64,000 bases of DNA from positions 13,082-77,081 of the IMG/VR virus record IMGVR_UViG_3300028030_000009. One strand, written 5' to 3'. The notes beneath the pieces were generated by a model. It made no database searches, was not told the DNA's origin, and saw only the letters and a list, made by a program, of their open reading frames with translations. The DNA comes from a virus. Below, one piece after another: positions 2,823-62,236 of this stretch. Each line of letters starts with the position of its first letter. Positions within the stretch are counted from its first letter, which is position 1. Both the position numbers and the translations under genes were made by a program.

Positions 2823-2980
2823 AAGGATGGTGGACGCCCACTAGTGTTCCTATCCCAGCCACTACTCCAATGGCGGTTGAGCTGAAACCTTGACTTATAG
2901 CCTATCGGCTAGGTTAAGGTTCGGTTCAGCCGCTACGGAAAAGCGCCGCCCACCGCTTAGAAAGTGGCTATCGTAGGGGG
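2823..2980 (+). ncRNA. Putative structured ncRNA (multibranch, ~29-bp imperfect hairpin)
   Basis: Hairpin 2871-2935 with ~6 G-U pairs; closing stem AGCCACT 2857-2863/AGTGGCT 2963-2969; small hairpins 2828-2843 and 2941-2958. Confidence 0.6.
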
Positions 2981-7584: not shown

Positions 7585-7610
7585 TCTAAAAAAAAATACA
7601 GCCACAAACA

Positions 7611-7627
7611 GCGGGCGAATAGCCCGC
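7611..7627. terminator. Hairpin between convergent transcription units
   Basis: GCGGGC-GAATA-GCCCGC. Confidence 0.6.
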
Positions 7628-7636
7628 GTCAAGACG

Positions 7637-8218
7637 TTACTTTCCGAAAATCTCTTCCAGCAGTTCGTCGATGTCTTTTTTGTCTTTTTTGGCTTGTACA
7701 CCCTTGATGATGTCCACAATAATCTGCATTACAGCACCGGGAATATCATCGCTGTCGTCGTTTTCGACAACCTTTCGCTCTGAGTGCTTTTTGATTTCTT
7801 CGACCTCTTTTACTTTTTCGATGCCCTTTTGAGAAAGCTCCCCAACTCCATAGTACAGAAGAGTCGCATTCTTTGACTTATCAATGAGCTCAATAAACTG
7901 TTTGGCCTCTTCTTCTGTTTCAAAGACGAAAGATTCGGTGTCCTCTTCAAAAAAGTTTACGACTTTGACGATATGATACTGCCGCTCATATTCTTCGTCT
8001 CTGCCGATAGGTTCTCCGTTTGCCTCAACCACTGTGTATTCCTCGGCGTCCTCTTTGTTGCATGCCTTCAGTTCAGATTTGCAAATCTTGATTCCATAGG
8101 GCTTTCCGTCTTCGTTTTCGCCTACACATACATAGTGACTGTCATCAACTTTTGTCACGACAAGCTCTTCCCCGTTTTTTACTTTGAAAATTGTGCCTTT
8201 TTTGAATTCGTTTTTCAT
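7637..8218 (-). CDS. Acidic hypothetical protein
   Basis: ORF with RBS AAGGGG. Confidence 0.8.
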   Translation of the reverse strand: MKNEFKKGTIFKVKNGEELVVTKVDDSHYVCVGENEDGKPYGIKICKSELKACNKEDAEEYTVVEANGEPIGRDEEYERQYHIVKVVNFFEEDTESFVFETEEEAKQFIELIDKSKNATLLYYGVGELSQKGIEKVKEVEEIKKHSERKVVENDDSDDIPGAVMQIIVDIIKGVQAKKDKKDIDELLEEIFGK

Positions 8219-8309
8219 CTTAATCCCCTTATATTTTGTTTTCGTTTTTTATATAAGCGCATTTATGCGCACCTTTTCCTGTACCTCGAACAATAATTGT
8301 TAAGTCAGC

Positions 8310-9355
8310 TCATTTTCTCACCTCCTTGTGTTCTTTGTATTCAATTATCTTAGTGGTCATGAAGCCACGTCCATTCTTAACCCAGTTGTGGGCCTGTTTT
8401 CCGCTCCACGCCCAGAAGTCAGCCCACTCTTCATCACGAACGCCAAGAGACATATATAGCCTCTTGACGCCACCGGATATCTCTCCTTCTGGGCTTACTC
8501 CTTTGGGAATTGAGTGTAATACCCCTCGATGTCCTCCTTGATTACACTTTCTTCATCCTCTAGGTATGAATCTGGTTCAACATCAAAGCTGATTTTCATG
8601 TGCTCAATGAACTCTTCAAAATCTTCTTCGTTCAAGCCAAGCGAGACAAGCCTATTTTTTACCTGTGTCATCTTGTCACCAACATCGTCCTTTTGCAAGG
8701 CAGTATTCTCGCTGCTCTTGCTCTGAGACAAATCTTCGGTTACGTCGAAAGGGGGCTCTTCGCCGACCTCCTCATCAGTAGAAACATCTTCTTTTTCGCT
8801 CATTCCAACAGCATTCGCAACGCACGAACCAGCGTCGATGACATCTTCTTGTTCATTATGCTCCTCCTGATTTGCCATTGGCTTCTCTGGCTTAGTCAAG
8901 TGTTCCTCCTCACAAGAACTACTTTCCGACTGAGTGTCAACCTCTTTGTCTTCTTTTTTTTCGTTGGCGGCTTCGCTCTTGTTCTTTCGCTTTCTTCGAA
9001 CAGGCTTTTTGCCTTCGGCAACAATAATCTCTTTTGCATCGTCAAGTGTCATTGGAACATACTCGCTAATAGTTCCGTTCTTGATTGCTTCCTCGGCTTC
9101 AGCCTTATCGACAACGACTGGGTCTCCAAAAGCTTTGGCCAGCACAAACTTGACTTCCCCTGAAATAAGCTTGTCGTACCATTTTGGAAGGCTTTTGCAT
9201 ACCCATCCTTCTTCCATCAGGTCTTTCATTTCCATAGGCTTTTTTGACTTCTTGTTTACGACGGCACCGTTAAGTAGTACGAACTCTGATTTTCCGTGAA
9301 TAAGAATATCGCATTCTCCAGCAATAAGTTTTTCTACAGCGCTAAGCTTTGTCAT
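8310..9355 (-). CDS. Hypothetical protein, 286 aa (8495-9355), with a predicted -1 frameshift extension to 348 aa (ends 8310)
   Basis: Start MTKLSAV; C CCA AAG at 8501-8507 before TAA; the -1 frame is open for 63 codons and repeats the C-terminal domain. Confidence 0.75.
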
Positions 9356-9822
9356 CTTTTCCCCTTTTCTGTTATTTTTTTGTTTTTGTTGCAAATGCAA
9401 TCGCTAGGCTTTGCGTCTGCGCATATTTGCGCACTGCATATATATCTTACAAGCCTATTTGCAAACCTAAGAGAGCCGAAATTGTCTGACGTGTTCCACA
9501 TCATATTTTTCAGCTCGACCATATGCCTCTTGCTTGCGTTTGTCTCTTCAAACTCACACCCGTAAACTGTAAGCATTGTAAGAAGAACCACACCTACGTT
9601 TATGTTGTCAATTGCAATACCTGCTTCGGCAGATGCAAACTTGATTGCTTCTTTGGCAAAAGCAACACACTGCGTTGGCTCACCCACAGACGAATTCACC
9701 TCTTCAAGAACATCTTTTTTAAGAGCCTTGAACAGCGCCTTCTTCACTCTTTTGGCACTTCCATCTGGAGCGTTTATCGCATCAACAAGCATAAACGCAG
9801 CCGCAGACATCATGAACTTCAT
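9352..9822 (-). CDS. Hypothetical protein
   Basis: ORF; ATGA overlap with the next gene. Confidence 0.75.
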   Translation of the reverse strand: MKFMMSAAAFMLVDAINAPDGSAKRVKKALFKALKKDVLEEVNSSVGEPTQCVAFAKEAIKFASAEAGIAIDNINVGVVLLTMLTVYGCEFEETNASKRHMVELKNMMWNTSDNFGSLRFANRLVRYICSAQICADAKPSDCICNKNKKITEKGKR

Positions 9823-9824
9823 GG

Positions 9825-10283
9825 TTAAAACGGAATTTCTTCTTCGTCTATATCGATTTCTGGATACTCAGGCTCGGCTGGCTGCTGGCTCTGTTGTTGC
9901 TGCTGTGGTTGGCTGCGTCCTCCATAGCCAGAGCTGCCACCTGTGCCACCGGAAGAATCTTTGCATGAAAGCATCTTGAACTCAGACACAACAATTGTGT
10001 GCTTTGAGCGCTTTGTGCCATCGTTTGCAGTCCATTGGTCCTGATTTAGTCTACCAGAAATAAGAATCCGTGACCCCTTGCTGAGGTATTGGTTTGCTAC
10101 CTCTGCGTTTCTTCCAAAAAACGTAATGTCAATGAATGTAGTTTCCTCCTTCTGTGTACCAGTGTTGTCTTTCCACTTTCTAGTCATGGCAATTGCTGAG
10201 TTTCCGATTGCGGTTCCGCTTGGTGTGTACTTGATTTCTACATCTCTTGTTAGATTTCCCATACCTATGAATTGGTTGAACAT
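9825..10283 (-). CDS. ssb: Single-stranded DNA-binding protein
   Basis: MFNQFIGMGNLTRDVE OB fold; Gly/Gln linker; acidic tip DIDEEEIPF. Confidence 0.97.
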   Translation of the reverse strand: MFNQFIGMGNLTRDVEIKYTPSGTAIGNSAIAMTRKWKDNTGTQKEETTFIDITFFGRNAEVANQYLSKGSRILISGRLNQDQWTANDGTKRSKHTIVVSEFKMLSCKDSSGGTGGSSGYGGRSQPQQQQQSQQPAEPEYPEIDIDEEEIPF

Positions 10284-13042: not shown

Positions 13043-13518
13043 GCTTCTTCGTCAGTTATGTTCTTAAACTTTGCAGCACAATCAGTGCATAGCACCTCGC
13101 CCTTCAGTCCAGAATCTTCGATTATTTTCTCACGACCCGCTGAAATATCCGATGTTTTTACAAACGCTGATGTAATCTTTCTGCATAGGCTACATTGTGC
13201 CTCATTTGTGTTGTCATCAGCTGGATTGACAACCGGATATGTGAGGCTTGGAACATCACTCCAGTCAACAAGAGCAAGGTCTGTATACCCAACAACATTT
13301 TCAAGATGTTTCAAAAGCGAGCCATGGCAATCAATTGCCGATTTTGTTGGGATTGTCTTGTCTCTGACAAACTCCCATGACGCAGCACTATGTTGCCCGA
13401 CAAACTCATATGCCGTGATAAAGCTAGAGCTTTCGTCATATTTGTCGTCAACAAAAATCGCCATAACATCACCCTTCAGCGGCTCCTCAATGTTTCTCAC
13501 AAATAGCACACGTGTCAT
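13024..13518 (-). CDS. Hypothetical protein with a C-terminal CxxC...CxxC zinc finger
   Basis: CSLC...CTDC; RBS AAGGAG. Confidence 0.75.
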   Translation of the reverse strand: MTRVLFVRNIEEPLKGDVMAIFVDDKYDESSSFITAYEFVGQHSAASWEFVRDKTIPTKSAIDCHGSLLKHLENVVGYTDLALVDWSDVPSLTYPVVNPADDNTNEAQCSLCRKITSAFVKTSDISAGREKIIEDSGLKGEVLCTDCAAKFKNITDEEACMEDL

Positions 13519-14366: not shown

Positions 14367-14622
14367 CGCCGCCTACCTTTACGCGCTCAAGCATGCCATC
14401 CGTTTCTTTGTTGACAAACTCAATCAGCTCCTCGCGAGATGCGAACAGAAGGCTCTCTTTTCTTTCGTAACCCATATCGTCGTCATCCACGACATAGTAA
14501 CTTATGCTTGGGCGACCATCCTTGATGTTTATGTTCACGGATTCCACTCTTACCACATCATACCCATAGGCGGTAATTGTGATAACAACATCGCCTGTGT
14601 TGTATTTTGTTTCTATTTTCAT
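14359..14622 (-). CDS. Hypothetical protein (IETKYNxGDxV family)
   Basis: Overlapping start/stop in operon. Confidence 0.75.
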   Translation of the reverse strand: MKIETKYNTGDVVITITAYGYDVVRVESVNINIKDGRPSISYYVVDDDDMGYERKESLLFASREELIEFVNKETDGMLERVKVGGDG

Positions 14623-15095
14623 TACTTTCCCCCTATTCTTGAAAGTCGAATGTCCTCGGCTACACGCCTCGTGACACCTAACACATAATTAAGGTCTGCC
14701 GGGTTGATTTGAATGTCTTCTATCATCCCTCGAAACTCATTAAAGTACCGATGCCGCCGACCGGAATCACTGCCAAGCCAATTCGCGAACATAATAGCAG
14801 AGTCCATAAGAAGATTTTCAAGCCCATGCTTATCTATGAATGCGTTGACAGAGCCTCCTCCATGATGAACCCAGTAATGTTCCTTGGAGCTAATGCAGCA
14901 CACGAAATAGTCATTATGCCTAATTCTGCTCTTTGGTAGCCAGTGATGAACCTCCTCTCCTCCGTTAAACGGCATCCACTCATTATGAAGCCAAGCAATG
15001 TAGTCTTTTATTATCAAGGTGCCCTTCTTCATCTCCTTGTTTTTTATTCTTTTTTCTTTTGCTCTTTCGAGCCTTAGCCTAATATCATTGTCCAT
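14622..15095 (-). CDS. Possible HNH-like (His-Me finger) protein
   Basis: EVHHW...NDYFVCC...EHYWVH pattern. Confidence 0.45.
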   Translation of the reverse strand: MDNDIRLRLERAKEKRIKNKEMKKGTLIIKDYIAWLHNEWMPFNGGEEVHHWLPKSRIRHNDYFVCCISSKEHYWVHHGGGSVNAFIDKHGLENLLMDSAIMFANWLGSDSGRRHRYFNEFRGMIEDIQINPADLNYVLGVTRRVAEDIRLSRIGGK

Positions 15096-55971: not shown

Positions 55972-56337
55972 TCAGTCCTCCTTTTTCACACGAATGACAT
56001 CAGTTGTTTTTGCTCCATTTTCGAGCTCAACATACAGCTCTACATCCCATCCAGCAAGCCTCCTGCCAGCGTAGACAGGAGTAATTCTGGACACATACGC
56101 ACTTGAAATTCCGCACTCGTCACACTCAACGGTGATAGGAGCGGTCATGTTTACAAGTTCTGCATCACATTTTGCAAGGAGCTTTTCGCTCCAGATTGCA
56201 CTGAACTTTCCTGTGTCGATGAACATAATATGTACCTCCAGTCTTCTTACATAAGGCCATTTGTTCGGCGCCTCATCTACCCTAAAAAAACAACCTACAA
56301 CACCCTTCCCGTATCGCACAAAGCAAACAATCGACAA
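55972..56337 (-). CDS. Hypothetical protein
   Basis: ORF; start uncertain (possibly MFIDTG). Confidence 0.6.
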   Translation of the reverse strand: MSIVCFVRYGKGVVGCFFRVDEAPNKWPYVRRLEVHIMFIDTGKFSAIWSEKLLAKCDAELVNMTAPITVECDECGISSAYVSRITPVYAGRRLAGWDVELYVELENGAKTTDVIRVKKED

Positions 56338-56415
56338 AATCGACTGCTTGCCTGTGTAACACAGGAAGGGTGCAGTGAAACCAGTTATTTTGCGCCTGCT
56401 GGCCAGGCGTGAGCT

Positions 56416-57286: not shown

Positions 57287-57388
57287 GGTTCACCTCCTTA
57301 GGTGTAGCTCCACTGCTCTGGCGTACAGTGGAGAAGGGAAGCCGCTTTCGCGGCAACTCACCAAGGCTCTTCATTCAACGCCCTGGTG

Positions 57389-57523
57389 GAGGCTATTATT
57401 TAGCCTCATATATATATGCCACGTTTTTTGCGATTTTTATCACCGCAATATTACGCAGCATACATACATGAGGCTAATTTCAGCCTCGTATATATATGCC
57501 GCATTTTTGTTAATTTTTATCAC
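57389..57523 (-). promoter_or_regulatory. Tandem ~55-bp duplicated element with GAGGCT-N-AGCCTC palindromes (candidate early promoters/operators)
   Basis: GAGGCTATTATTTAGCCTCATATATATATGCC...ATTTTTATCAC and GAGGCTAATTTCAGCCTCGTATATATATGCC...ATTTTTATCAC. Confidence 0.6.
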
Positions 57524-57610
57524 TAAATTTAAACTGTTTTTGTTGATAGTAATTTCTGGTAAAATGATGCCGTAGTTGTATGCAGTCAAAATATACACCA
57601 GGAGCAAGCA

Positions 57611-59044: not shown

Positions 59045-59121
59045 GTGGGTATAGCGCAGTCTGGTAGCGCACCTGGTTTGGGACCAGGTGGTCGCAGGTT
59101 CGAATCCTGCTGCCCGCACCA
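59045..59121 (+). tRNA. tRNA-Pro(TGG)
   Basis: Cloverleaf, CCTGG-TTTGGGA-CCAGG, CCA end. Confidence 0.95.
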
Positions 59122-59142
59122 TTCTAACAAAAAAAACACGAA

Positions 59143-59230
59143 AGCAGGTTGGCTGAGTGGTCGAAAGCGGCGGTCTTGAAAACCGTTGAGGGTAACACCT
59201 CCGTGGGTTCGAATCCCACACCTGCTGCCA
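59143..59230 (+). tRNA. tRNA-Ser(TGA)
   Basis: Long variable arm, anticodon loop CTTGAAA, GCCA end. Confidence 0.95.
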
Positions 59231-59248
59231 TTATGGACATAATCAAAG

Positions 59249-59512
59249 ATGATTGACAAAAAAGAAGTCGGCGAACTGATAGCATCATCAATATATGACT
59301 CTGACGATATAGACACAGCTCTTTTTCAACTTGAGACATCAACACCAGAAGAAAGAAAAAGACTAATTCCTGTTGTTGTTGAATTGATTCTTGAAGAAGC
59401 TCTGTTTGGAATACTTTCTGGGATATCAACCAAAGTAACCGATGAAGAGTTTGAAGAAATAAGACAGATGGTGCTTAAGTCTGTCGAGGATTCAATCGGT
59501 AATTTTTCATAG
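59249..59512 (+). CDS. Acidic hypothetical protein between tRNAs
   Basis: ORF track. Confidence 0.65.
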   Translation: MIDKKEVGELIASSIYDSDDIDTALFQLETSTPEERKRLIPVVVELILEEALFGILSGISTKVTDEEFEEIRQMVLKSVEDSIGNFS

Positions 59513-59515
59513 AAT

Positions 59516-59600
59516 GCGGAAGTGGTGGAATTGGTAGACACGCCAGCCTTAGGAGCTGGTGCACTAGTGCGTGAGAGTTCGAGTCTCTCCTTCCGCACCA
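59516..59600 (+). tRNA. tRNA-Leu(TAG)
   Basis: CCAGC-CTTAGGA-GCTGG, variable arm, ACCA end. Confidence 0.95.
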
Positions 59601-59753
59601 TTCATTAAGCGAGAACAAATGGTTGAAACAATAATGGTTTCACTACTGTTTGTGTCATTCCTTGCCGGATACATTGTTGGATGCGCTTCATGCAACAACT
59701 CCTCAAAAGAAAAACACGACGGCAAATACTGCGACACAACACCATACTTTTAG

Positions 59754-59830
59754 GCAGCCGTAGTTCAGATGGTTAGAACGCCTGCCTGTCACGCAGGAGG
59801 CCGTGGGTTCGAGTCCCATCGGCTGCGCCA
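59754..59830 (+). tRNA. tRNA-Asp(GTC)
   Basis: CCTGC-CTGTCAC-GCAGG, GCCA end. Confidence 0.95.
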
Positions 59831-59983
59831 TATAAAAAAGATAGAAGGAAATACAGATGGAATTCAATACTATGCTTTTGATGGTTAACATTGCTGGACT
59901 CCTCCTATTCTACGACACAAATTCAGATAATTGCTAATTTTTTAAGTATCACGTAAAGTTCTGTTTGGTATAGTTCAAGTTAT

Positions 59984-60060
59984 GCGCCCGTAGCTCAGCA
60001 GGATAGAGCATTCGCCTTCTAAGCGAACGGTCCCAAGTTCGAATCTTGGCGGGCGTACCA
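59984..60060 (+). tRNA. tRNA-Arg(TCT)
   Basis: TTCGC-CTTCTAA-GCGAA, ACCA end. Confidence 0.95.
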
Positions 60061-60061
60061 T

Positions 60062-60138
60062 GCCGGTGTAGCTCAGTTGGCCAGAGCAGCTGATTTGTAA
60101 TCAGCAGGTCGTCAGTTCGAATCTGACCATCGGCTCCA
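60062..60138 (+). tRNA. tRNA-Thr(TGT)
   Basis: GCTGA-TTTGTAA-TCAGC, CCA end. Confidence 0.95.
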
Positions 60139-60356
60139 TCTCAAAAAAGTCGTACAATACGCCAAAACCCCTTGCAAAACAAAAAAATATTCGCTACAAT
60201 TCAAACTGTCAGAGATGACATCGCTTTATGTCTTCCTATCATTTTATACTGATAGGCCACATATTGCGAGGCTACGAGGGGGAGAGCCGTTCTGGAGATA
60301 AGCGCCCAGAATCCGCCATGCTCATGGAGGCCCGCCTCAACAGCCGAATAATAAGC

Positions 60357-60431
60357 TGGGGTGTCGCCAAGCGGTAAGGCCGCAGGTTTTGGTCCTGCTA
60401 TTCGGGGGTTCGAGTCCCTCCACCCCATCCA
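60357..60431 (+). tRNA. tRNA-Gln(TTG)
   Basis: U1-A72, GCAGG-TTTTGGT-CCTGC, CCA end. Confidence 0.93.
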
Positions 60432-60432
60432 T

Positions 60433-60508
60433 TCCGGTGTAGCTCAGCTGGTAGAGCGAGCGGCTGTTAACCGCTATGTCGCAGGTTCGAGTCCTGCCAC
60501 CGGAGCCA
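60433..60508 (+). tRNA. tRNA-Asn(GTT)
   Basis: AGCGG-CTGTTAA-CCGCT, GCCA end. Confidence 0.95.
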
Positions 60509-60533
60509 CAAATACTTCAAAAAAGGGGAAATC

Positions 60534-60728
60534 ATGAAAAAAAAGTTCAAATCTCTGTGGAAAATTGATATTAGCTATGATGACGATAGTGGAGATACGG
60601 CATCAGCAACATTTATGGTAGTGGCGAGAACAATCGATAAGGCAATCAGCATTGCTAGGAAGAATTTTGGAAATGTGGATGTGGAGATTGTTTCCGTAGA
60701 AAAAACAAACTGCAACCTTTTGTACTGA
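60534..60728 (+). CDS. Small protein (VVARTIDKAI, DpnD-like)
   Basis: RBS AAGGGG. Confidence 0.65.
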   Translation: MKKKFKSLWKIDISYDDDSGDTASATFMVVARTIDKAISIARKNFGNVDVEIVSVEKTNCNLLY

Positions 60729-60736
60729 GCATAGAC

Positions 60737-60997
60737 ATGGAAAATTGCGAAATTGAGCAAGCAATTTTTAGGGAGATAGAAAAAGAGGTTGTCCGCATAA
60801 TCAGAGAGAAGCATATGGACTACATTGAGAAGGTAGTTGACGATAACATTGAGTATATCGTTGATGAGTTCTTTAGGAGTGCAAGAGAATACGGTCATGA
60901 GCAGATAGACGAGGTAATCGTTGACGCCATGAGAGAAAAAGTCAGCCAATATATGAAAGATGTTGAGCTGACAAAAAAATCAAGCAAGGTGAAGTGA
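60737..60997 (+). CDS. Hypothetical helical protein
   Basis: ORF track. Confidence 0.65.
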   Translation: MENCEIEQAIFREIEKEVVRIIREKHMDYIEKVVDDNIEYIVDEFFRSAREYGHEQIDEVIVDAMREKVSQYMKDVELTKKSSKVK

Positions 60998-61269
60998 TGA
61001 GATATATCGTTGCTGAAAAAATCCCAACAGAGGTTAAGATGCTCAGCGTAACAAAAAAGGAGCTTGAGGATATGCGAAACAAGTTTAGGTGCATATCCGT
61101 TTCCTTGCAAGACGAAAAGTGGCTGGCATCAGAAGAAGACGATGCACACGTTGGCTATCTTGCCGGAGAAATAGGAAGAATGCACCAAGACCAATATGCT
61201 GATGTTTGGTTTGTAAACAAAAACTATTTCAACAAAAACTATAGAATTGTAAAGGAGGAAGAAAAATGA
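60994..61269 (+). CDS. Hypothetical protein (DVWFVNKNYFNKNY)
   Basis: Coupled to the DUF2829 gene. Confidence 0.7.
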   Translation: MMRYIVAEKIPTEVKMLSVTKKELEDMRNKFRCISVSLQDEKWLASEEDDAHVGYLAGEIGRMHQDQYADVWFVNKNYFNKNYRIVKEEEK

Positions 61270-61556
61270 GTGCAGGAACTTTTGTAGGAGAAGGGTCTTT
61301 CGGATGGGCTCTCAAAATGCTTGAAAACGGCGAGAAGGTAGCAAGAGATGGGTGGAACGGGAAAGATATGTTTCTGTTTCTTGTTCCAGGTAGCAAATTT
61401 AAGGTAAACCGTCCACCGCTTCTAGGAATCTATCCAGAAGGAACGGAGATTGAGTATCATGCTCATATCGACATGAAGACAGCGCAAGGATATGTTGTTC
61501 CGTGGCTAGCGTCACAAGCAGATATTCTAGCAAAAGACTGGAAGGTGGTTAAGTAA
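61266..61556 (+). CDS. DUF2829 / Thoeris anti-defence Tad2-like protein
   Basis: FGWALKMLENGEKVARDGWNGKDMFLFLV...PWLASQADILAKDW. Confidence 0.85.
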   Translation: MSAGTFVGEGSFGWALKMLENGEKVARDGWNGKDMFLFLVPGSKFKVNRPPLLGIYPEGTEIEYHAHIDMKTAQGYVVPWLASQADILAKDWKVVK

Positions 61557-61777
61557 TGCACGGCATGTTCATGTTTGACATGAGCAGGTGTCATGGCATT
61601 GGGTGCGACAAATCAACAGAATGTGCACGCTATCTTGCTGTTGAGTTTGACAAAAAACACAAAGATGAGCTTCCAAATTATATGTCATACATCCAAGAAG
61701 CAAGCTGCATTCGAAACGGGTTCTCAGGTTTTGTAAAAGCAACAAAGCAAGAAAAAAAACTTGCTATGCAAGGATAA
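61556..61777 (+). CDS. Small Cys-rich protein, paralog of 29602-29793
   Basis: CHGIGCDKSTECARY...CIRNG. Confidence 0.7.
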   Translation: MHGMFMFDMSRCHGIGCDKSTECARYLAVEFDKKHKDELPNYMSYIQEASCIRNGFSGFVKATKQEKKLAMQG

Positions 61778-61815
61778 AAAAGCTTTGTATAAGGTACAAT
61801 TTTGTACCATTCTTT

Positions 61816-61883
61816 CTGCCAGTCGTCTAGCGGCCAAGGACACCTCAAACGAGGAAACGCATGTTCAAATCATGCCTGGCAAA
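61816..61883 (+). ncRNA. tRNA-Glu-like element with a truncated anticodon arm
   Basis: TGCCAG/CTGGCA acceptor, GTCTAGCGGCCAAGGAC D-arm, CCTC-AAAC-GAGG, GCATG-TTCAAAT-CATGC T-arm; no CCA. Confidence 0.65.
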
Positions 61884-61957
61884 ATCAGGGAAAGATTAGG
61901 CAGCAGGTGTTTCTAGAGCACCTATACAGCTGAACAGGTTCAACCCCTGCCTGATTA
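61883..61957 (+). ncRNA. Degenerate tRNA-like element with a CUA anticodon-type loop
   Basis: AATCAGG/CCTGATT stem; AGGTGT-TTCTAGA-GCACCT; CAGG-TTCAACC-CCTG; poor D-arm. Confidence 0.5.
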
Positions 61958-62077
61958 AAACTCCTGCAGAAGTGCAGGTCGCTCAAGGCAAGTCTAATAG
62001 GCGCTTGAGCCTTGAGAGTAGCACCGCTGCCTCTGTCTACCGAGCAATGAGCTCAGGTAGTCACGCACGGAATATTC

Positions 62078-62155
62078 GGGCACTTAGCTCAGTTGGTAGA
62101 GCTCCCCGCTCATAACGGGGCGGTCGGTTGGGTTCGAGTCCCCCAGTGCCCACCA
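62078..62155 (+). tRNA. tRNA-CAT (Ile2 or elongator Met); 2-nt bulge in the T-stem
   Basis: CCCCG-CTCATAA-CGGGG, ACCA end. Confidence 0.88.
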
Positions 62156-62160
62156 TATAT

Positions 62161-62236
62161 GGGGTTGTAGCTCAGTTGGGAGAGCGCTTGCCTTGCACGC
62201 ACGAGGTCACGGGTTCGAGCCCCGTCAACTCCACCA
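62161..62236 (+). tRNA. tRNA-Ala(TGC)
   Basis: G3:U70, loop CTTGCAC, ACCA end; one mismatch in the anticodon stem. Confidence 0.93.

Follow-up and report, generated by a model that had tools for sequence, protein, structure and literature searches.

A candidate programmed −1 ribosomal frameshift that would add a second four-helix domain to a replication-arm protein of an uncultured hydrothermal-vent phage

We analyzed a 64,000-nt stretch of DNA (the window; positions 13,082 to 77,081 of IMG/VR record IMGVR_UViG_3300028030_000009), which belongs to a 77,081-bp contig estimated by CheckV to be 41% complete and derives from an uncultured hydrothermal-vent phage. Within the replication arm of this phage, a gene encoding a 286-aa protein ends in the heptamer C_CCA_AAG, and we consider with moderate confidence that a programmed −1 ribosomal frameshift (PRF) occurs there. 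Slippage would extend the protein by 63 residues; judged by matches to a family profile, these form a genuine further copy of the four-helix domain with which the 286-aa protein already ends. The candidate site would thus represent an ordinary recoding mechanism, canonical −1 PRF, acting in a gene of an unusual class, and is well supported in silico but unproven. All coordinates below are those of the window, and features lie on the minus strand unless stated otherwise.

The 0-frame gene (9355..8495, matching gene call P0001) starts at an ATG at 9355 with AAAAGGGGAAAAG 5′ of it and encodes 286 residues followed by TAA. Its 3′ end reads ...TAC ACT CAA TTC CCA AAG GAG TAA, with the stop at 8497–8495, and the slippery heptamer C_CCA_AAG (8507–8501) stands in X_XXY_YYZ register with the frame of ATG 9355, placing CCA in the P site and AAG in the A site. 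The 6-nt spacer that follows, GAGUAA (8500–8495), contains the 0-frame stop UAA. Meanwhile, the −1 frame is open from 15 codons 5′ of the CCC with which the heptamer starts; its extension of 63 codons (8501..8313) has GGA (8501) as the first codon, reads GVSPEGEISGGVKRLYMSLGVRDEEWADFW... and ends at a TGA (8312–8310), giving a predicted trans-frame product of 285 + 63 = 348 aa. A Shine–Dalgarno (SD)-like GAGGGG (8527–8522), 14 nt 5′ of the heptamer, is a candidate upstream stimulator of the dnaX kind. The coordinates proposed in a first-pass annotation of this DNA for the heptamer, spacer, stem arms and −1 frame were all right when read on the minus strand. Its placement of the gene two genes after ssb was equally accurate: the SSB gene (10283..9825; Pfam SSB match, 1.6e-32) is followed by a 156-aa open reading frame (ORF) and then by the 286-aa gene.

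Searching 1.84 billion representative sequences with the 0-frame protein by phmmer, we retrieved 34 distant homologues (E values from 1.8e-30 to 2e-5), none of which bears a name and some of which lie on phage contigs of 165–187 kb. The nearest, P0003, shares 47% identity and comes from a 1,326-nt contig. Members of this family consist of a conserved N-domain of ~110 aa, a linker that is lysine-rich and then acidic, and, at the C-terminus, either one domain or two that are recognizable by the signature (K/R)-x-Y-F-x-S-L-G-L-x4-W-x2-F; the N-domain carries conserved W51/W59 and a VNKRSKK-LDMK motif and includes residues that are invariant in the alignment. AlphaFold2 modelling from the family alignment divided the 286-aa protein into a beta-rich N-terminal domain (residues 1–110), a disordered basic/acidic linker and a four-helix C-terminal domain (228–282), with a predicted local distance difference test score (pLDDT) above 90 for both domains. 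The predicted helices of the latter span residues 228–238, 243–257, 261–265 and 269–282, the first lying directly before L239-G240. Moreover, the 0-frame stop comes 6 residues after the YY motif, and the usual distance in the family is 2–7 residues after the F/Y-Y motif.

When the 63-aa extension was used as the phmmer query, 13 of the 34 homologues were matched at E < 0.01, always in their C-terminal domains. These homologues had been retrieved with the 0-frame protein only. A domain profile built from the 34 homologue domains, with both copies of the studied gene left out, scored 33.5 bits against the 0-frame C-terminus and 28.0 bits against the −1 extension; among 2,192 stop-to-stop segments in the six frames of the genome, only these two were significant (4.3e-8 and 4e-7, respectively). 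The claim that the extension is a duplicated domain therefore holds. The resemblance to the preceding domain that had been remarked upon earlier is real but short when the two are compared directly, the Smith–Waterman score being 39 over VKNRLVSLGLNEEDFEEF / VKRLYMSLGVRDEEWADF against 21.4 ± 3.8 for shuffled sequences (p ~0.0015), and BLASTP between the 0-frame domain and the extension returned no match; both segments nonetheless match the family domain profile. The homologue domains fall into an A type, found as the first or sole domain, and a B type, which is the second domain in all eight two-domain homologues (8/8). The extension is of the A type, scoring 22.7 bits against the A-type profile versus −1.5 against the B-type profile. 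Its AlphaFold2 model (pLDDT 86) comprises a flexible or disordered linker (residues 1–7) and predicted helices at 10–18, 23–32, 37–43 and 45–62.

Immediately downstream of the heptamer, the transcript is predicted to fold into a long irregular hairpin. The 5′ arm of its outer stem, GCCCAGAAG (8494–8486), begins 6 nt 3′ of the heptamer and is perfectly complementary over 9 bp to the 3′ arm CTTCTGGGC (8418–8410), written as CUUCUGGGC in the other rendering of the same arm, with 67 nt between the two. In the −1 frame, the 5′ arm encodes the linker residues S-P-E and the 3′ arm encodes D-F-W-A of the domain core. The perfect 9-bp stem over a 67-nt loop, already pointed out in the first-pass annotation, is present in the minimum free energy (MFE) structure: folding from 8494, as for a ribosome paused on the heptamer, yielded the 9-bp stem, an intermediate helix and an inner 12-bp hairpin (8470–8440) composed of GCGUCAAGAGGC (8470–8459), the loop UAUAUAU (8458–8452) and GUCUCUUGGCGU (8451–8440). 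With an MFE of −38.6 kcal/mol (z = −4.18), this structure was more stable than every one of 200 dinucleotide shuffles. After GC correction, only 24 of 10,266 windows of 90 nt across both strands of the 77-kb genome were as stable, and of the 147 XXXYYYZ heptamers that stand in frame across 124 ORFs, no other is followed at 5–9 nt by so stable a structure. No Rfam family matched within 8250–8600. As a separate observation, the most stable 90-nt folds of the genome lie at 56291–56380 (minus), 57326–57535 (minus) and 2850–2954 (plus), reaching −53.3 kcal/mol and a GC-corrected z of −7.3; none of the three has an Rfam match at the gathering threshold.

In the proposed mechanism, a ribosome positioned on C_CCA_AAG would hold tRNA-Pro on CCA and tRNA-Lys on AAG as its mRNA entry site, 6 nt ahead, meets the irregular hairpin with its GC-rich 9-bp stem, intermediate helix and 12-bp hairpin. 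Held by this structure, and possibly aided by the upstream GAGGGG as in dnaX, the ribosome would undergo simultaneous slippage, tRNA-Pro moving from CCA to CCC and tRNA-Lys from AAG to AAA. A fraction of ribosomes would thereby move back by one base onto CCC_AAA, read GGA GUA AGC... and translate through the hairpin, producing a 348-aa protein in which a linker of 7–9 residues joins a second four-helix domain; the predicted trans-frame junction peptide is ...YYTQFPKGVSPEGE... (QFPKGVSPEGE). Ribosomes that do not slip would read GAG and stop at UAA, leaving the 286-aa form with the normal end of its family. The phage would thus produce a modular protein in two versions, with one domain or with two, at a fixed ratio; relatives encode one or two domains of this kind in a single frame. 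What the analysis establishes is the set of sequence elements, how stable the structure is, the homology of the domain, where the domain begins with respect to the ATG and that two assemblies are free of indels; the occurrence and efficiency of slippage, as well as the roles of the domains, are inferred.

We then asked how often such a heptamer arises by chance. In ~23,600 codons of the genome, CCCAAAG occurs in frame 3 times and XXXAAAG 22 times, so that a heptamer of the XXXAAAG class is expected within the 19-codon overlap window, where a −1 shift joins the two frames, with a probability of ~0.018; for any heptamer, this value is ~0.11. Heptamers within two codons of a stop are found in 6 genes and are therefore not rare in this genome, because the purine-rich ribosome-binding site (RBS) motifs of the next gene mostly sit there. 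One of these, G_GGA_AAG (14618–14628) before the stop of the gene at 15095..14622, where the next gene is in the −1 frame, was discarded as a frameshift candidate, as it represents an RBS with a TAATG stop/start overlap; it illustrates how such heptamers originate by chance in this genome. In E. coli, the heptamer C_CCA_AAG has been reported to be highly shift-prone (Atkins et al. 2016, PMC5009743). The phage genome encodes tRNA-Pro(UGG) and no tRNA-Lys gene. Its 10-tRNA cluster (59045–62236, plus strand) comprises Pro-UGG, Ser-UGA, Leu-UAG, Asp, Arg-UCU, Thr-UGU, Gln-UUG, Asn, Met and Ala-UGC.

Two public sequencing runs from different studies contain the stretch. X1, recorded as a hydrothermal vent metagenome, is identical save one base near a contig end and is probably the source of the record. 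X2, the record of which names no source, contains one 80,294-nt contig that spans 7600–9900 with 96.9% identity, 72 substitutions and zero gaps. Given that neither assembly shows an indel, we rejected an assembly error as the origin of the two frames; transcriptional slippage was likewise rejected, the runs being merely 3 nt long. Among the 40 of the 72 differences listed, the heptamer and both 9-bp arms are unchanged in X2, and four changes fall within 8310–8507: K to E at 8315 (the last codon), Y to F at 8338, GGC to GGT at 8364 and CTA to TTA at 8459. The change at 8459 is synonymous in the −1 frame, lies 5′ of the internal ATG and turns the closing C-G pair of the hairpin into U-G. On the same subset of differences, divergence in the ORF region amounted to 4/191 (2.1%) versus 8/91 (8.8%) in the adjacent intergenic sequence (Fisher p = 0.022).

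The −1 frame contains a single ATG (8453–8451), from which gene finders call a 47-aa ORF (8453..8310, P0002), and we weighed the unlikely though credible explanation that two separate genes are present, with the ORF translated from its own AAGAGG SD, the hairpin acting as its translational regulator and the heptamer being coincidental. The AAGAGG (8465–8460) lies 6 nt 5′ of this ATG and its duplex energy of −5.8 kcal/mol is within the range of the genome; furthermore, as described above, heptamers beside stops are common here, RBS motifs overlap gene ends (e.g. at 14622) and any heptamer would enter the overlap window with a chance probability of 0.11. However, the duplex is weaker than the median and is equalled or bettered in 80 of 124 genes. 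The AAGAGG is also fully paired, buried in the 5′ arm of the 12-bp hairpin, of which the G of the ATG forms the closing pair. The start region (−35 to +20) folds at −22.0 kcal/mol, more stable than all 124 gene starts (124/124; mean −6.9, sd 4.1, minimum −17.1), and the ATG is situated 41 nt past the 0-frame stop, behind the hairpin; on termination at 8495, a ribosome would disrupt the outer stem but would fall short of the hairpin at 8470–8440. In addition, the ATG encodes Met17 of the extension, near the end of predicted helix 1, and the 47-aa product would therefore be without helix 1 of the four-helix domain. The profile and phmmer alignments to the extension begin at residues 12–13. Every instance of the domain has an aromatic residue at −3 from LG; in the extension, the codons for this residue and for the basic ones at −5 and −6 stand in frame just 5′ of the ATG. 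The 16 residues preceding the ATG add 3.8 bits (null p = 0.03–0.06), a gain that is suggestive rather than decisive for a domain start 5′ of the ATG. No ATG, GTG or TTG occurs in the −1 frame between the upstream stop and ATG 8453, and no stand-alone 27–111-aa protein with this domain was found besides the gene call of the contig itself (5.8 billion sequences, at word-index sensitivity). Translation from the internal ATG only, the outcome that the first-pass annotation had named as refuting a frameshift, is thus disfavored because predicted helix 1 precedes the ATG and because no start region of the genome has a more stable hairpin than the one that encloses this ATG and its SD. Two other starts were dismissed: initiation at the ATA codon at 8480 would have an SD spacing of 2 nt, and a 38-aa GTG ORF in the 0 frame (8473..8357), which lies wholly inside the domain-coding −1 ORF and has no relatives, is probably spurious despite a good GGAG 9 nt 5′ of it.

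A frameshift lesion, which we regard as rather improbable, would also place the domain in the −1 frame: an ancestral two-domain ORF would have lost one base, for instance an A of CCCAAAAGG, leaving the domain untranslated or rescued at a low, unselected level through adventitious slippage on that run (a "saviour indel"). Restoring one A produces the exact trans-frame sequence FPKGVSPEG, relatives carry two domains in a single frame, indels would tend to favor homopolymer runs, which resemble slippery sites, and translational correction of indels is a recognized category (PMC5009743). Nevertheless, the 0-frame stop sits at the normal C-terminus of the family, and the extra domain is of the A type, unlike the B-type second domain of 8/8 two-domain homologues; therefore, a simple break of an ancestral A-B order does not fit. 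A lesion would also leave unexplained the exceptional hairpin at the right distance, and the arrangement persists in the 3%-diverged lineage of X2 with the ORF intact, two of the four changes synonymous and divergence below that of the intergenic sequence on the listed differences. Less probable still is that the structure serves another end, for instance as a site of RNase III processing or as an element that stabilizes the mRNA between two cistrons, with the domain being reached otherwise, for example by reinitiation after termination. As in T7, the long irregular hairpins that separate early phage genes can serve for processing, and no Rfam match ties the structure to a given class. On the other hand, the structure lies entirely within sequence encoding the homologous domain, no reinitiation start codon exists 5′ of helix 1, the ATG comes only after the hairpin, and no terminator-like U run follows 3′ on the minus strand.

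Several observations weigh against a programmed frameshift. An ancestral CCCAAAAGG that lost a single A would yield a sequence identical to the present one, and the internal ATG does have an AAGAGG at 6 nt on its 5′ side. The heptamer and stem are kept solely in the ~3%-diverged strain, with no compensatory change in the 9-bp stem, and the divergence counts rest on the 40 of 72 differences listed, which apparently follow positional order up to 8754. In the three distant relatives for which DNA is available (L002, L003 and L004, the last being the same as L005), the A and B domains are encoded in a single frame and an unrelated gene comes next; thus, frameshifting is not a conserved trait of the family and would be lineage-specific. 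No relatives at intermediate distance were found in the collections searched. No RNA run is present among the public sequencing runs containing the stretch. The shift-prone behavior seen in E. coli may not carry over to the phage host with its own tRNA-Lys set. The conservation proposed earlier as a check therefore gave a divided result, the signals being kept in the 96.9% identical strain and absent from the three distant relatives. The reading of this site as PRF is likewise supported in part: the heptamer class, 6-nt spacer, exceptional structure and real domain copy speak for it, but the heptamer and stem do not extend to distant homologues, and an old one-base deletion in an A run would look the same.

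The search for closer relatives covered several collections. Cultured phages contained no close relative by blastn and tblastn, a word-indexed protein search with both ORFs returned the query itself only, and scans of IMG/VR with the protein, the neighboring gene and two subfamily alignments found no relative. A degenerate DNA pattern for EEWADFWAW gave no match, bacterial genomes held no relative, and a metagenome scan returned solely the L004 contig. SSB synteny was not found in L002–L004. As a side observation, the family gene in these three contigs is followed on the plus strand by a small conserved gene of ~110 aa (…VWW-PD…VFV-P…TVEEG…AYD-F…; L002 5090–5400, L003 5080–5400 and L004 5230–5560), which has no counterpart 3′ of the studied gene.

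Among known systems, the candidate site invites comparison with E. coli dnaX (tau/gamma; PMC6787027, PMC5009743). Both have an X_XXA_AAG-type heptamer with tRNA-Lys in the A site, a stem-loop ~6 nt downstream and, on the 5′ side, a sequence resembling an SD (GAGGGG at 14 nt in the phage, at 10 nt in dnaX), and both concern a replication-associated gene with two products, predicted ones here, that share an N-terminus and occur in a set ratio. The dnaX heptamer, however, is A_AAA_AAG, the protein has no sequence relation to DnaX, and the shifted ribosome on dnaX stops almost at once to give the shorter product, whereas the shift here is predicted to add a folded domain of 63 aa. The frameshift of the lambda-like tail assembly chaperone G/GT, reportedly described by Xu, Hendrix and Duda in 2004, offers another parallel. 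That −1 slip, like the one proposed here, takes place just where the upstream ORF ends, on heptamers such as G_GGA_AAG or C_CCA_AAG, and gives a C-terminally extended minor product. Tail chaperones account for 2,397 of 2,476 joined genes in SEA-PHAGES and are the dominant annotated case of phage PRF (PMC10885494). Unlike these, whose two ORFs sit between the genes for the major tail and tape-measure proteins, the studied gene lies in a replication and nucleotide-metabolism arm beside SSB, DnaG, DnaB and ribonucleotide reductase, has no PHROG match, and its extension duplicates a domain already present instead of adding a different one.

In T7, a −1 shift near the stop of the capsid gene 10A lengthens some of the molecules by ~50 aa at the C-terminus (10B), and the fusions 0.6B and 5.5-5.7 indicate that early non-structural phage genes can be frameshifted. 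The candidate would resemble 10A/10B in a −1 shift just before the upstream frame stops and in extending the C-terminus; it differs in its shift site and in an unrelated protein, and the 10B signal needs distant 3′ sequence. Within the family, P0006, P0007, P0009, P0010, P0017, P0020, P0021, P0025 and L002–L004 share with the studied protein the N-domain, the linker and four-helix domains of the x-Y-F-x-S-L-G-L-x4-W-x2-F type. In contrast, these homologues carry two C-terminal copies, A and then B, in one frame with no heptamer or stop between them. If real, a site in the replication arm would mean that recoding is worth looking for in a broader set of genes. The criterion that a small orphan ORF after a heptamer is a truncated copy of a domain found in frame in homologues could be applied systematically to metagenomic phages.

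A protein family of 35 members, not named before, also emerges from the analysis, and several of its proteins have an SSB-like C-terminal tip. The minus-strand arm that houses the studied gene encodes SSB, DnaG primase, DnaB helicase, ribonucleotide reductase and a cytosine methylase. Neither ORF matched Pfam or PHROG, the chaperone PHROG families included, and neither model had a fold match in the PDB. The N-domain (9026–9355) showed weak fold matches to Tad2-like/DUF2829 (PF11195) proteins (Atlas TM 0.44; top BFVD hit by Foldseek, E = 0.024, probability 0.99), with no Pfam match even at E = 10; this modelled likeness to Thoeris anti-defense Tad2-like proteins is one of fold and is a lead only. 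The C-terminus (D/E)EIPF occurs in 12 of the 34 homologues (P0011, P0012, P0014, P0015, P0018, P0019, P0022, P0024, P0026, P0028, P0031 and P0033), a tip shared with the SSB of this phage (…EEEIPF); the 286-aa protein itself is without it in both frames. Its presence in the homologues suggests mimicry of the partner-recruiting SSB tail and hints at competition for its binding partners. The helical domains probably act as protein-binding modules within an adaptor associated with replication. It is conceivable, although we consider it quite unlikely, that the family represents a modular replication/anti-defense adaptor, combining in some members a possible Tad2-like N-domain, one or two helical binding modules and an EIPF mimic of the SSB tail, with frameshifting setting the ratio of monovalent to bivalent forms. 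If true, this would be a case, without a described precedent to our knowledge, in which a phage protein that is early and non-structural has the valency of its duplicated domain tuned by −1 PRF.

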